A stretch of 46,387 nucleotides of DNA, from the NCBI GenBank assembly GCA_016184305.1, contig JACPCX010000125.1:1-46387 (forward strand), written 5' to 3'. Every line of letters starts with the position of its first letter. The first letter of the stretch is position 1. Of the stretch, positions 6,009-12,677 are shown piece after piece. The translations under genes and the position numbers were made by a program. This DNA is from Candidatus Rokuibacteriota bacterium. GTDB taxonomy: Bacteria; Methylomirabilota; Methylomirabilia; Rokubacteriales; CSP1-6. The notes below the pieces were generated by a model. The model had not been told where the DNA came from. It worked only from the letters and a program-made list of their open reading frames with translations, and ran no database searches.

Positions 6009-6335
6009 CTAGAACTGGTGCGAGGAACCGCATCCACAGGACGACTTCACGTTGGGGTTGTTGATCGCGAACCCGGCCCCCAGCATGTTGTTGTCCACGT
6101 AGTCGATCTCGCTGCCCGCCAGATACGGCGCGCTCTTGCTGTCCACAAGGACCCTGACCCCATGGGACTCGACGACGCTGTCGTCCTCGCCGGCCGCATC
6201 ATCCCACCCCAACTCGTACGACATGCCCGAGCAGCCGCCGCCGACAACGCGAATGCGCAGGCCCAACTCGGGCTTGCCCTCTTCGAGCCGCAGATCGGCG
6301 ATCTTCTTCGCCGCCATTTCAGTCAGACTGACCAT
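6009..6335 (-). CDS. A-type Fe-S cluster carrier (IscA/ErpA/HesB family)
   Basis: GGGCSG and NPN..SSCGCGSS motifs; GGAGGA RBS before ATG 6335. Confidence 0.93.
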   Translation of the reverse strand: MVSLTEMAAKKIADLRLEEGKPELGLRIRVVGGGCSGMSYELGWDDAAGEDDSVVESHGVRVLVDSKSAPYLAGSEIDYVDNNMLGAGFAINNPNVKSSCGCGSSHQF

Positions 6336-6435: not shown

Positions 6436-7113
6436 TCAAAGCACACCCCCCGCCGGCAGCAGGGTGATCTCCTCCAGCGCCGCGTTGGGCGCCTGCGCGG
6501 CCATCAGGAGCGCCGCCTCCGCCACCTGCTCGGGCCGGAGCATCCGGGTCCGGTCCGGAGGGCTCGGCACGGCATCCCAGAGGGCGGTGTCCACCGCCCC
6601 CGCCGACAGCACCCCCACCCGCACCCCGTGGGGGCGCATCTCCTCCGCCAGCACCCGGGCGAGTCCCAGGAGCCCGTACTTCGAGGCCGTGTACGCCGAG
6701 GACCCGGAGAGCGTGCGGCTCGTCACCACGGAGCCGATGACGATGATCGTCCCGCTCCGCTGCGCCATCATGGTGGGCAGCGCCGCCCGGCAGCAGAGGA
6801 AGGGGGCGCGCAGGTTCACCGCCAGCATCTCGTCCCAGGCGGGGGGGTCAGTCTCGACCAGGGGCCCGAACGCGGCCGTGCCGGCGGCGGCCACCAGCAA
6901 ATCGATGCGCCCGTACGCGTCGAGCAACCGCCGGACGAGAGCGGCGACGGCGGCCTCCTGCCCCTCGATCTCTCGCGCCACCGCCTCCAGCTCGGCAGCC
7001 GTGCGCGCCGCGAGCACCACCGTTGCTCCCTCGCGGGCGAAGGCGAGCGCCACGGCGCGGCCAATGCCGCGCCCCGCCCCGGTGACCAGCGCCACCTGGC
7101 CGGCCAGCCTCAC
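6436..7113 (-). CDS. Short-chain dehydrogenase/reductase, probable bacterial sepiapterin-reductase type; apparent in-frame deletion near 6957
   Basis: TGAGRGIG, catalytic [14 protein letters not shown]-terminal EEITLLP.GG; the usual beta-strand/'DV' segment is missing between EIEGQ and EAAVAAL. Confidence 0.8.
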
Positions 7114-7138
7114 GCGCGGCCCCGCAAGCCCCGGCCCG

Positions 7139-8645
7139 TCAAATCATGGGCCCGCCGCGCGACTTGATCAGCTCCATGAACTCGGCGCGCGTCTCGGGGC
7201 GGTCGCGGAAGGCCCCGAGCATGGCCGAGGTCACCGCCTTGGAGTTCTGCTTCTCCACCCCGCGCATGACCATGCACATGTGTGAGCCGCTCCTGCACCT
7301 GCAAGCGCCGGCTGAACATCTCCACCAGCCGCGGCATCTTGGAGAGCCCCACGATCTTCTTCGACGGCATGTAAGCGATATGGCACTTGCCAAAAAACGG
7401 GAGCAAATGGTGTTCGCAATTATGAGTGAGGTGGCCGCCGATCAGGAAGGTCGGATAGGGAGCGCAGGTGATGCTGTACACCGTATGGGGCTTCTTGGCG
7501 TTGGGAAGATGCCGCAACTCCACTACCGCGGTGTACGCGCTGTCGAAGGGCACGTAGGACTCGCTCTCCTGACGGAAGCCGTGCCTGCCGTACCAGCCCG
7601 CCTGGTGCCAGCGGTCCGACACGTAGACCCTGAAGCACTGGTTCGCGCCGTTCCGGGTCGTGGCGAGCGGCGTGCCCAGGTACTGGGCGAGGTCCTCCAG
7701 GAAATCCCGGTTCGCGCTGGTTATGAAGCGACCGGAGGAACCGACCGCGTACCCGTCTCCGTCGCAGTACCCGTCGAGGAATCCCTGCATCATCTCCCGG
7801 GAGGAGGTCACGACCCTGGGAAACTTGAAGGACTTCGTCTGGCTCCGGGATCCCGTCTCCGAGACGCCGAGCCAGCGGCACAGCTTCTCTCCGACGTGCC
7901 GCGAGACGACGCGGACACGATACATCGGGACGTCTCTCCGGAGAAAGCTGGATGGCACCGTCACGGGCTCCACGGTGGGCGTCGTGGACGGAAAGGCTTG
8001 AGCGAACAATTCCCGGTACTTCTCGGCGAAGGCGGGGCTCTTGACGGTAAGGCAGACCCGCCGGCCGTCCTGGACGCTGCCGTCTGCCGCCGTCGCGCCG
8101 ATCACGTACCCCAGGGCGTAGCCGGGCTGCGGCTCGTGAATGCCGCGGCAGAGCGAGCGAGGGTTGATCCACTCGACGCGGACCCCCTGCTTCAGGTCTC
8201 CCGCCTCGCACCAGCCGGTCTCCGTCATGACGGGGTGGTCCGGGGTCACCTGGAAGCGGCCGCGCTCGGTCCTGACCTCGACGATGTCCCGGGTCTTCCG
8301 TGAAGTGACAGCCGTGACCCGAGTCTCCTTCAGATATCCGTGATCGACCGTCCACAGGCGGTCCCCGGGCACGACCTCCCGGGCGGGCTTGGCGCCGGCC
8401 ACGGCGTCCACGATCTGCTTGCCCGGAACGCAGAGGGAATAGAAGTCGATGTCCTTGACGACGACCATCTCGTCGTACTCCTCGGTGAAGAGCGCCTCGT
8501 TGAGCACCGCGCGCGCGTCCTGCTGGTAGCCGGAGGTGAGGTACTCCAGGGCCTTCGCCACCCGCGCGGGCGTCTTCTCGAGCCCTTCCCGCTCGGGGTC
8601 CTGCCCCAGCTCCTTCAGCAGATCGCGGATCACCTGCTCGAGCAT
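7139..8645 (-). CDS. folE: GTP cyclohydrolase I interrupted by an intein; frameshifting deletion near 7281 in the C-terminal part
   Basis: [51 protein letters not shown]; the conserved [11 protein letters not shown]...TRAEF tail continues in another frame to the stop at 7139. Confidence 0.93.
7419..8432 (-). mobile_element. Intein (338 aa) with LAGLIDADG homing endonuclease, in folE
   Basis: Starts with Cys (CVPGKQIV); block [18 protein letters not shown]-like [11 protein letters not shown] and [11 protein letters not shown]; ends GGHLTHN followed by Cys+1; removal restores FYSLCEHH. Confidence 0.95.
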
Positions 8646-8649
8646 GCTG

Positions 8650-9066
8650 TCACCTCGTGGTCTCGCCGCGGTACTCGAAGGCGTTGTTGTCCGTCTCGAT
8701 CACCGCGACGCGCGTGAGAGTCGCCGGAGGCAGGGCCGGCTCCAGCCACTGCCAGAAGGCGCGGGCCAGATTCTCGCCGGTGGTGATGACGCCGTCGAGG
8801 GCCGGCACCGTGCCGGACAGGTCATGGTGGTCCACCCGTTCCAGGATCACCCGTTCCACCGCGGTGTCGAGCAGCGCGAGGTCGGCCGCCATGCCCGTCG
8901 TCGGATCGGGGCGTCCCGCCAGCGTCACCTCGACCCGGTAGTTGTGACCGTGCTGCCGGTAGCACTGGCCATAGACCCGCGCGTTCTCGGCGTCCGAGAG
9001 CGCCGGGCTCGCCAGGCGATGCCCGGCGCTGAAGTGGTACAAGCGGGTGAGCCGGAGCGCGCTCAC
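8650..9066 (-). CDS. 6-pyruvoyl-tetrahydropterin/6-carboxytetrahydropterin synthase (PTPS/QueD family), Cys-containing copy
   Basis: [34 protein letters not shown] start overlaps the upstream stop. Confidence 0.88.
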
Positions 9067-9476
9067 GGCCCGAAGTACTCCACGTGGAAGGTGGGGTCCT
9101 CCCAGAGCCGCAGGCCGTGGAGGCGCTCGACGCCCAGCCTGGGGACCAGCAAGTCCCAGATGGCACGGACGAGGTTCTCGGTGGTGGGGATCTGGCGCCG
9201 GGCAAAGAGGGGGTCGGCGCTGAGATCGGCGTGATCGAAGCGCGCCAGGATCGTGCCGCCCACCACGCGCTTGAGCTCGCCGAGGTCCACGACCATCCCG
9301 GTCAGCGGGTCCACGGACCCGCGCAGCGTGACATCGAGCACGTAGTTGTGTCCGTGGGTGACCGTGAGCGGGCCGAACACGCGAGCGTTCTCCTCGGCGC
9401 TCCACTCGTCCCGCCAGTAGCGGTGGGCCGCGGAGAACGTGAACTTGCGCGTCACGTAGAGCAGACCTGGATTCAT
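9063..9476 (-). CDS. PTPS/QueD-family protein, copy lacking the catalytic Cys
   Basis: FSAAHRY, HGHNY, GMVVDL, FDH, PTTENL, LWE; LTVTHGH in place of CxxxHGH. Confidence 0.88.
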   Translation of the reverse strand: MNPGLLYVTRKFTFSAAHRYWRDEWSAEENARVFGPLTVTHGHNYVLDVTLRGSVDPLTGMVVDLGELKRVVGGTILARFDHADLSADPLFARRQIPTTENLVRAIWDLLVPRLGVERLHGLRLWEDPTFHVEYFGP

Positions 9477-10555
9477 GTCGATGCGGCCTCTCCGATATGC
9501 GATCTTACCGCGTCCAGGAACCGCTCGGCGATCGGCGTGGGCGTGAACTCCGCCGCGCGGCGGCGCCCCGCCTCGCCCAGCTCGCGCGCGCGCTCGGGTC
9601 GCCTCAGGAGGTCCGCCAGCGCCCGGGCCAGCGCCTCGGGGTCCCGGGGCGGCACCAGCACCCCCGTCTGCCCGTCCAGCACCACCTCCGGCACGGCGGC
9701 GGCGCGGCAGGCGACGACGGGGAGCCCCGCGGCCATGGCCTCGAGGAAGACGATGCCGAATCCTTCCTGGACGCTGGGGAGACAGAAGCAGTCGGCGTTG
9801 GCGTACTCCTCGGCCAGCCGCTCCCGCGAGATGTCGCCGAGCAGCGCCACCCCCTCCCCCAGGCCGAGCGCCCCGTGGAGCCGCATGAGCGCAGCACCCT
9901 CGGGACCCCGTCCCACGATGCGGATCCGCGCCGCGGGGATTCTCGACCGGAGCCACGCGGCGGCGTACAGCAGGTCGCCGATGCGCTTGCGCGGGTACTG
10001 GCGCGCGACGCAGAGCACGACCGGCCCCGCCCGCGGGCGCTGCCCTGCGCGGGCGAAGCGCGCGCGCCAGCCCTCGACATCGATGGCCTCCGGCACCACG
10101 GCAATCCGGGAGGCCGGGACGCCGTACTCCGCCCGCGCGACGCCGGCGGAGTAGTGGCTGGACAAGACGACCATGTCGGCGCGCTCGGTGTTTCGCCGCT
10201 CCCAGCGGGCCTGGATCCCGAGGAGCGCTCGGACCCAGCCCCGCTCGTTCTTCAGCTCGTCGGCGATGATCCCCTTCAGCGTCGCCACGAAGGGGATCCG
10301 GCGCCGCCGCGCCCAGAGAAATCCGTCGAGGTCATAGCCGACGACCAGGTGCGCGCCGCGGGGAGGGGACAGCGCCACGCCCAGGTTGTAGAGCCAGCGG
10401 TCGAGTGTATGGAAGCCGGTGCGGACCCGAAGGGGCCGGAGCTCCACCTCGTGGCCGAGAGCGCGGAGCCCCCGGGCCAAGGCATCGAGGCTGACGAACG
10501 TGCCGCTCCCCTCCAGCGGGTTGAACGGGGTCGAGGAGAGGACGGCGATGCGCAG
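9473..10555 (-). CDS. GT-B family 4 glycosyltransferase
   Basis: RK motif (YPRKRI), PS.QEGFGIVFLEAMAAGLPVV, EVV.DG.TG.LV; the frame extends upstream of TTG 10480 to CTG 10555 (LRIAVLSS), so the start is uncertain. Confidence 0.88.
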   Translation of the reverse strand: MRIAVLSSTPFNPLEGSGTFVSLDALARGLRALGHEVELRPLRVRTGFHTLDRWLYNLGVALSPPRGAHLVVGYDLDGFLWARRRRIPFVATLKGIIADELKNERGWVRALLGIQARWERRNTERADMVVLSSHYSAGVARAEYGVPASRIAVVPEAIDVEGWRARFARAGQRPRAGPVVLCVARQYPRKRIGDLLYAAAWLRSRIPAARIRIVGRGPEGAALMRLHGALGLGEGVALLGDISRERLAEEYANADCFCLPSVQEGFGIVFLEAMAAGLPVVACRAAAVPEVVLDGQTGVLVPPRDPEALARALADLLRRPERARELGEAGRRRAAEFTPTPIAERFLDAVRSHIGEAAST

Positions 10556-10558
10556 CGG

Positions 10559-11344
10559 CTACCGGCCCTGGAACCTCGGCGGCCGCTTCTCGAGGAAGGC
10601 CCGGGTGCCTTCCCGGTAGTCCTCGCTCTCGAACGTCTCGATGCCCAGACGTCGAAGCTCGGCCCGGTGAGCCTCGGTGAGTCCGTCGAAGATGGCGCGC
10701 ACCTGCGCCTTCGTGCCGCGCACGGACAGGGGCGCATTGGCGGCGACCGTCTTCAGGTACTCGTAGGTGGAGCGCTCCAGTTCGGCCACCGGCAGGAGAC
10801 GCTGGATGAATCCGATGCGCAGCGCCTCCTCGGCGTCCACCGTCCGCGCCGAGTAGAGGATGTCCTTGGTGTAGGCGGGTCCCACCAGGTCCACGAGCTG
10901 ATGCACGGCGTCGAGGCCGTAGATGATGGACAGCTTCGCCGCCGGGATGCCGAACCGGGAGCCGACGGCGGCGAAGCGGAGGTCGCAAGCCATGGCGATG
11001 GCCATGGCCCCCCCCATGCAGAACCCGAACACCATGGCCACGGTCGGCTTGGGGCAGAGACGGATGCCGGTGTAGGCGGCGTCGGTTTGCGTGCCGTACC
11101 TGAGCGCGGTCGCGGTGTCCTTCCGGTGCTCGGTGAACTCGGAGATGTCGGCGCCGGAGGCGAAGGCCTCGTGGCCCGCGCCGCGGTAGACGATGGCGCG
11201 GACGCTGTCGTCCTTGGCGAGCCCCTCCGTGACCCGCGCGATCTCCGACCACATGGCCAGGCTGATGGCATTGCGCATCTTGGGCCGGTTGAAGGTGACG
11301 GTGGCAATGCCGCCGTCATGCGTCACCAGGATGTGGTCGGTCAT
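10559..11344 (-). CDS. Enoyl-CoA hydratase/crotonase family protein
   Basis: NRP..RNA, AFASGADISEF, CMGGAMAIAMACDLR, DYREG..AF.EKR.P.F.G. Confidence 0.92.
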   Translation of the reverse strand: MTDHILVTHDGGIATVTFNRPKMRNAISLAMWSEIARVTEGLAKDDSVRAIVYRGAGHEAFASGADISEFTEHRKDTATALRYGTQTDAAYTGIRLCPKPTVAMVFGFCMGGAMAIAMACDLRFAAVGSRFGIPAAKLSIIYGLDAVHQLVDLVGPAYTKDILYSARTVDAEEALRIGFIQRLLPVAELERSTYEYLKTVAANAPLSVRGTKAQVRAIFDGLTEAHRAELRRLGIETFESEDYREGTRAFLEKRPPRFQGR

Positions 11345-12601: not shown

Positions 12602-12677
12602 TGGTGGCGGCGGGAGGACTCGAACCTCCGACACGGGGCTTATGAGACCCCTGCTCTGCCACCTGAGCTACGCCGCC
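12602..12677 (-). tRNA. tRNA-Met (CAT), probably elongator
   Basis: GGCGGCG/CGCCGCC acceptor stem with encoded ACCA, D arm GCTC/GAGC, anticodon loop CTCATAA, T loop TTCGAGT; 76 nt; G1-C72 paired so not initiator type. Confidence 0.93.

Follow-up and report, generated by a model that had tools for sequence, protein, structure and literature searches.

Why would a Rokubacterial genome surround its only folE with two pterin synthase genes, a reductase and a glycosyltransferase? The question is raised by a 46,387-nucleotide stretch of Candidatus Rokuibacteriota DNA (assembly GCA_016184305.1, contig JACPCX010000125.1; the whole stretch is hereafter the window). In it, genes for a GT4-family glycosyltransferase (GT), two members of the 6-pyruvoyl-tetrahydropterin synthase family (PTPS-1 and PTPS-2), GTP cyclohydrolase I (FolE) and a short-chain dehydrogenase/reductase (SDR) follow one another (Table 1). 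A first-pass annotation made from the letters of the window had taken them for an operon producing a glycosylated tetrahydrobiopterin (BH4). The five co-oriented genes, all on the minus strand, and their two 4-nt overlaps (ATGA at 9473-9476 and GTGA at 9063-9066) are indeed present, and comparison with related genomes brings us to a wider proposal. This conserved module, built around a single folE, would encode a pathway to a biopterin-type glycoside, its transferases having been recruited convergently, an interpretation of the sequences that we regard as rather probable. That the module synthesizes a pterin is likely.

A glycosyltransferase that accompanies the pterin genes

Among the 61 genomes of the order, 47 carry the PTPS pair. 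In 30 of these the gene slot upstream of the pair is taken by the GT4 of the window (presence threshold E ≤ 1e-40) and in the 17 others by a GT2; no genome combines the two slot types. Neither slot enzyme is found, at the thresholds used, in the 14 pair-less genomes and, as searched, the presence of a slot GT coincides with the presence of the pair in all 61. Within the order, the link drawn earlier between the glycosyltransferase and the pterin genes is supported, as it comes and goes with them. Seven of the 14 pair-less genomes also show no folE, and the contig may simply be missing there. The seven others keep folE and all lack the SDR downstream of it; five of them read ech-folE-iscA directly, other genes lying between in G040 and the contig being cut upstream in G049. 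Since folE separates the upstream GT and PTPS genes from the downstream SDR, the joint absence of all of them is not the outcome of one deletion. On the host tree, PTPS presence provides three independent contrasts, in which the GT follows in 3/3 and the SDR in 2/3, and the slot state (GT4, GT2 or none) changes six times. Counting against the link, three contrasts are too small a number for the sign test to reach significance (p 0.25), and four GT4 genomes and three pair-less ones hold weaker GT2 paralogs (E 1e-31 to 1e-48).

The order GT-PTPS-PTPS-folE-SDR recurs far beyond chance, folE being found at 45, the SDR at 44 and a slot GT at 45 of 46 loci. Synteny across relatives, to which the first-pass annotation had pointed as a check, is found across the order and also in Acidobacteriota. 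Broken or cut sequences were dropped before these counts (L075 and L076 for PTPS-1, L071 for PTPS-2, L041 for the SDR); L036 and L074 were too short for the tree, and G018 and G025, where contigs end, were left out of the SDR contrast. folE is the sole copy found in each genome and is therefore common to folate and queuosine synthesis.

A scan of named genomes returned at least 600 matches, and 52 of the best 80 are loci of Acidobacteriota. Directly upstream of the pair, these have a GT2 in 47 cases and a member of the present GT4 family (42% identical) in 2, and folE is found in 51/52. In the order of one GT4-bearing acidobacterium (Terriglobia, 101 genomes sampled), a PTPS-II gene is present in 81 genomes, the GT2 in 83 and the GT4 in 11, the two transferases never occurring together; of the 81 with PTPS-II, 79 have the GT2, one the GT4 and one neither. 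Chloroflexota-type genomes with fused PTPS-folE-SDR hold the GT4 family in 5/5 cases; in one of them it is part of the cluster, and in the four others it is located elsewhere. The family was not found in one Dehalococcoidia and one Armatimonadota genome, both with the PTPS pair. When 81 GT4 loci were compared (80 from a metagenome scan and one genome), pterin genes were located beside the GT4 at 56 of 58 Rokubacteria-like loci. In L106 and L190, the member of the GT4 family adjoins a pterin-4a-carbinolamine dehydratase gene. Finally, a redoxin gene is divergently upstream at about 45 of 70 loci outside the order (a count from an overlapping-frame cluster), a weak hint to a redox role.

Two observations on these loci may be added. 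In the Terriglobia genome G125 (L286:2031-3260), the PTPS pair is preceded by a 410-residue open frame without Pfam match in place of a GT4 or GT2, possibly a third slot occupant. The cluster at L106:5980-11876 comprises a fused PTPS, folE, an SDR, a RibD-type reductase, a response regulator, the pterin-4a-carbinolamine dehydratase, the GT4-family gene and a second SDR.

Predicted enzymes of the module

By sequence, PTPS-1 and PTPS-2 are the halves of a split bimodular PTPS-II with derived, altered motifs. Fused two-module relatives are common (503 matches, the named ones including Chloroflexota, Nitrospirota, Binatia and Geobacillus) and, in a comparison with 120 of them, PTPS-1 is closer to the N module in 94 cases and PTPS-2 to the C module in 114. 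The scaffold of PTPS-2 is of the mammalian type, with a match to rat PTPS at E 3e-31 versus 4e-12 for Escherichia coli QueD, and PTPS-1 similarly matches animal PTPS at 6e-22 versus 8e-9 for QueD. The genomic linkage used to recognize PTPS-II is also found, with folE at 45/46 and the SDR at 44/46 loci. PTPS-1 retains the zinc-binding histidines and the Asp-His dyad and has no cysteine before HGH in 45/45 sequences; PTPS-2 retains the dyad and displays Cx3HGH in 46/46. No ExxHGH motif is present. Two residues before the cysteine, where QueD chains carry a histidine, PTPS-2 has glycine in 45/46 and aspartate in 1/46, and histidine in none. Miles et al. are said to have treated the role of this extra QueD histidine, in a His/Asp dyad, in 2014. 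Of the PTPS assignment made at first sight, the PTPS-II ancestry stands, as seen from the module matches and the likeness to animal enzymes; what does not is the diagnostic Cx5HGH, which is missing from the pair. Acidobacterial pairs with the same gene order do possess it, both genes having Cx5HGH at 51 of the 70 outside loci. Compared with QueD (PTPS-I, 6-carboxy-tetrahydropterin synthase), PTPS-2 has the same Cx3HGH but differs by its long mammalian-type scaffold and its missing histidine; moreover, the pair is unlinked to queC or queE and tracks with the SDR and the GT.

Other members of the PTPS family were met on the way. Nineteen of 20 PTPS-II-less acidobacterial genomes were searched for the family, giving a strong QueD-like match in 19/19 and a second divergent match in 18/19. 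All nine second copies inspected (L276-L280 and L287-L290, in G068, G074, G088, G094, G098, G066, G070, G076 and G084) have no cysteine before HGH, and six are beside an SDR. This short paralog, Cys-less before HGHDY and often tail-to-tail with the SDR, falls outside the PTPS-I, II and III motif classes. In four loci of Marinimicrobia type (L102, L119, L134 and L160), single PTPS-II-like genes with no catalytic cysteine are located beside folE.

The SDR is likely of the sepiapterin-reductase type. The motifs GAVDTALW and EEITLLP.GG, noticed at first reading, are both in its sequence, and the Chlorobium-type assignment drawn from them agrees with the substrate pocket: the residues of the Chlorobium enzyme are kept, with Phe at the C. 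tepidum Phe99 position in 44/44 and Trp at the Trp196 position in 43/44 sequences, besides the Ser-Tyr-Lys triad (44/44) and the NADPH-binding Arg37 (43/44). The Trp is absent from the other top SDR matches of the module-SDR profile. According to excerpts of PMC7520308, Phe99 and Trp196 are essential if the substrate is to be bound in C. tepidum sepiapterin reductase. This enzyme (PDB 2bd0, 231 bits) is the best single-domain PDB match of a profile of 14 module SDRs that omits two paralogs without the Trp. It falls to rank 6 with a wider profile that includes these paralogs, 9 with a single protein, 14 with the C-terminal part and 14 by structure, a dependence that counts against the assignment. 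It aligns with the SDR over its full length (35% identity structurally), and the tepidopterin pathway of C. tepidum to which it belongs differs from the module, which has two PTPS modules. The best family model, NCBIfam PRK07454, scores below its cut-off, and fold comparison does not separate functions among SDRs or among GT4 enzymes.

The slot GT4 belongs to a subfamily with the invariant motifs GSGT, KG-x-IADE and QEGFG. Its predicted model (predicted local distance difference test score of 89) adopts the GT-B fold and matches GT4 structures at Z 30-38, the nearest being MshA (Z 37.8, root-mean-square deviation 2.9, 343 residues aligned), sucrose-phosphate synthase, GlgM and BshA. The pteridine-glycosyltransferase likeness proposed in the first-pass annotation was not recovered. 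Indeed, the BH4 glucosyltransferase BGluT comes as PDB match 39-40 of the GT4 profile (E 4.6e-15), for the donor domain only (profile positions 172-318), PsBGluT (9v0l) ranks 46 by structure (Z 30.2, root-mean-square deviation 2.9, 319 aligned), and the single GT4 protein matches BGluT at E 1.4e-7. By its sequence, the GT4 is thus placed outside the known BH4 glucosyltransferase family, with which it shares the GT-B fold and the GT4 family, an outcome that the first-pass annotation had listed, for this enzyme, as speaking against its own interpretation. In comparison with CtPGT, which is AviGT4-like (PMC5683033), it is without AviGT4-like motifs, as compared by eye with the printed sequence. 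Its action on a pterin is predicted from gene context.

The alternative occupant, a GT2 not found in the genome of the window, scores 190 bits with the HpnB model and 144 bits with CruG, below both cut-offs (379 and 600). Like these membrane GT2 families, to whose models it is nearest, it has predicted C-terminal membrane helices; unlike them, it is linked to pterin genes and not to hopanoid or carotenoid genes. In the ESM Atlas, only generic GT4 and GT2 clusters were obtained.

Predicted pathway and competing explanations

After self-splicing of its intein, FolE would convert GTP into 7,8-dihydroneopterin triphosphate, its family function and a step common to folate and queuosine synthesis. 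PTPS-1 and PTPS-2 would assemble into a mixed hexamer in which the cysteine comes from PTPS-2 and half of the sites are active, yielding 6-pyruvoyl-tetrahydropterin. Using NADPH, the SDR would then convert this product by side-chain reduction into tetrahydrobiopterin, whose configuration may be L-threo as in Chlorobium tepidum, and the GT4 would add a sugar to a side-chain hydroxyl. An alpha linkage is predicted because GT4 enzymes retain configuration; a GT2 would give beta, and the unrelated membrane GT2 in the same slot of sister lineages would thus lead to the beta-glycoside. The glycoside is most likely the end product, since no BH4-using hydroxylase or nitric oxide (NO) synthase was found (aromatic amino-acid hydroxylase in 0/61 genomes, NO synthase in 0/5). 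It may constitute a stable pool of reduced pterin with a protective function (redox or stress), which is the weakest step of the scheme. Pterin-4a-carbinolamine dehydratase is present in 48/61 genomes, four module-less ones included, and therefore does not track the module; nor does CutA (21/61), a reported pteridine binder (excerpts of PMC12685090).

In Synechococcus sp. PCC 7942, a BH4-alpha-glucoside arises by the same GTP-to-glycoside route as predicted here (through FolE, a dual-domain PTPS-II, sepiapterin reductase and BGluT; PDB 5ze7/5zer), likewise with two PTPS modules and a GT-B GT4 transferase. In contrast to that system, the PTPS of the module is split in two genes without Cx5HGH, its GT4 is of another subfamily and can be replaced by a GT2, the Rokubacterial host is not known as a phototroph, and the product is predicted from genes alone.

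Several observations weigh against a biopterin-type glycoside, and they distribute over three other explanations. The module might make an unconjugated tetrahydrobiopterin-type pterin, with a slot GT4 or GT2 acting on another acceptor such as a membrane lipid or an envelope component, which we consider unlikely. The membrane helices of the GT2 and its nearness to HpnB and CruG would fit such an acceptor; these enzymes work on lipids or are connected with them, which is odd for a soluble pterin, and GT4/GT2 pairs are familiar as alternative glycolipid synthases. The distance of the GT4 from BGluT points the same way, as do ten acidobacterial genomes with the GT4 family (42-48% identical) but with neither a PTPS-II pair nor an adjoining pterin gene, and the missing pterin neighbour at 15/15 GT4 loci outside Rokubacteria for which each flank extends over 1.5 kb or more. 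However, the transferase tracks the PTPS pair in every genome of the order as searched, two unrelated GTs occupy the same slot in two phyla, and the 70 outside loci show no recurrent lipid or envelope neighbour of the module, apart from the redoxin gene.

Less probable again is a pterin glycoside that is not of the biopterin type, either because the altered pair yields another product or because the GT uses neopterin or 6-hydroxymethylpterin, as in solfapterin and cyanopterin, the two precedents described in excerpts of PMC3546692. Cx5HGH, the PTPS-II signature according to excerpts of PMC5041015, is missing from all 45 PTPS-1 and all 46 PTPS-2, no more than 22 of the 52 acidobacterial loci (among the best 80 matches) have the SDR a short way downstream, and the Cys-less PTPS paralog of GT4-bearing acidobacteria without PTPS-II adjoins an SDR at six of nine loci. 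On the other hand, PTPS-2 is far nearer to the rat and human PTPS than to QueD and shows neither the QueD histidine nor ExxHGH, and 44/46 Rokubacterial loci retain an SDR with the pocket residues of the Chlorobium enzyme, an argument for a pyruvoyl side chain that has to be reduced. A third explanation, in which QueD or PTPS-III enzymes serve ordinary queuosine or folate synthesis beside a bystander glycosyltransferase and SDR, would account for the Cx3HGH of PTPS-2, whose spacing is that of QueD (a QueD signature in excerpts of PMC5041015 and PMC9894224), for a single-copy folE serving both pathways and for a block among housekeeping genes. This explanation appears very improbable to us, as GT, SDR and pair go missing jointly and the two pathways are handled by other genes in relatives. 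Separate QueD-like genes are located beside queC on other contigs in at least eight genomes, FolB is found in 57/61 genomes (not in the window's own, 89% complete), and a strong full-length QueC (E below 1e-60) in none of the 21 genomes of family f4, 13 of which have the pair. Because of FolB and of the QueD-like genes beside queC, the pair is unneeded for folate or queuosine, and such a role was rejected. The first-pass annotation had come to the same view from the window; queE, queF, folK and folP were not searched.

A last explanation concerns this genome only. In the window, folE is shorter by 71 nt (a frameshift near 7282) and the SDR by 39 nt (near 6962) than in a same-genus genome about 95% identical, both deletions falling within 330 nt, and a pathway that is dead here would be the literal interpretation. 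We judge it extremely improbable. Contigs from four runs of one study, the best-holding run included, agree with the window on either flank of each break, but at 7282 and 6962 they leave its sequence and carry the missing letters, and in one run the SDR site is covered by a single contig, the additional letters included. Among the matches listed, no contig piece bridges the deleted form. Moreover, folE, the only copy found, and the SDR are intact in three same-genus genomes. As flank-matching contigs hold the missing letters and no listed piece bridges the deletion, the breaks are most likely assembly errors, and the pseudogene interpretation was rejected.

Pterin glycosides have been described from cyanobacteria, Chlorobium and Sulfolobus (PMC3546692, PMC5683033 and PMC4133829), and their roles "remain unknown" in the words of the first of these. 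They have so far been studied almost only in phototrophs and are usually explained by light or UV. No such pathway in Rokubacteria or Acidobacteriota was found in the literature searched, which consists mostly of the main texts of non-subscription journals. The broader statement that Rokubacteria, Acidobacteriota and some Chloroflexota, all very abundant in soil and groundwater, make a biopterin-type glycoside, and that pterin glycosylation was invented at least three times (the BGluT family, the present alpha-type GT4 and the HpnB/CruG-like beta-type GT2), the last two being freely exchanged in one slot, seems to us evenly balanced between right and wrong. If true, a pathway in groundwater and soil heterotrophs without hydroxylase (0/61) or NO synthase (0/5) would detach these compounds from photosynthesis, and the question would become testable in cultured Terriglobia, where the PTPS-II gene is in 81/101 sampled genomes. 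It would also give two large glycosyltransferase groups their first acceptor and function, and imply that the cell needs "a sugar" on its pterin, whichever the linkage. In the same vein, the motif rules for PTPS would need an exception, namely a Cx3HGH enzyme of PTPS-II descent with a Cys-less partner.

Intein, host and genomic surroundings

Table 1. Genes of the module, the folE intein and flanking context genes in the window
Feature	Position	Strand	Remarks
GT4 (GT-B) glycosyltransferase	9473..10555	-	PF00534, E 1e-39; predicted pterin glycosyltransferase; probable CTG start
PTPS-1, N-module of split bimodular PTPS-II	9063..9476	-	PF01242, E 1e-29
PTPS-2, C-module of split PTPS-II	8650..9066	-	PF01242, E 3e-32; likely catalytic subunit
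folE, GTP cyclohydrolase I	7139..8645	-	PF01227; intein-interrupted
LAGLIDADG intein inside folE	7419..8432	-	338 aa; Cys1 ... His-Asn, Cys+1
SDR	6436..7113	-	PF00106, E 7e-48; predicted sepiapterin-reductase type
Enoyl-CoA hydratase (ech)	10559..11344	-	neighbour gene outside the module, retained where the module is absent
iscA/erpA-type Fe-S carrier	6009..6335	-	neighbour gene outside the module, retained where the module is absent

The intein of folE is inserted in the conserved SLCEHH motif, immediately in front of its Cys. It has the hallmarks of class 1 inteins such as the mycobacterial RecA intein (Cys1, terminal His-Asn, Cys+1, a LAGLIDADG endonuclease domain and a patchy distribution with empty alleles in relatives), from which it differs by its host gene. 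Present in 12 of 53 folE-bearing genomes, it changes state eight times on a host tree of 52 rows, and this patchy spread matches the expectation for a mobile element. No description of an intein in folE was found in the literature searched.

The affinities of the host are with Methylomirabilota/Rokubacteria. Methylomirabilota or Rokubacteria is the label of the named genomes that come nearest, with an unchanged gene order and 74-75% identity in PTPS-1 (one label being conflicting), the ESM Atlas cluster of the GT4 is commonest in Rokuibacteriota, and the best-holding runs are groundwater metagenomes. The lineage had been taken for non-phototrophic, which is consistent with the type II reaction-centre family being found in 0/5 genomes (the search did not extend to type I centres or rhodopsins).

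The two gaps left between the module genes are short, 4 nt between PTPS-2 and folE and 25 nt between folE and the SDR. The five genes are part of a longer co-oriented run (CoA-transferase, ech, GT4, PTPS-1, PTPS-2, folE, SDR, iscA, moaD-moaE, tilS and degP) and therefore do not form a free-standing operon. A promoter and terminator scan gave nothing above chance and no promoter-like site, and no RNA run was among the matching runs listed; we infer both co-transcription and completeness of the pathway. The GT4 most likely starts with CTG (10555-10553), 3 nt past the stop codon of ech, and this position probably reflects translational coupling. The CTG start is shared by three same-genus genomes and two others, most of the remaining ones having GTG or ATG.

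Two further features of the window were noticed. Between 12983 and 23894 it encodes several secreted proteins that resemble subtilases and whose C-terminal domains are repeated, in a region of partly lower GC content (58-64% at 14-17 kb versus 70% overall). A tRNA with a CAT anticodon (Met or Ile2) is located at 12602-12677, upstream of the co-oriented run; this run includes tilS (5327-3897), whose product modifies the CAT-anticodon isoleucine tRNA.

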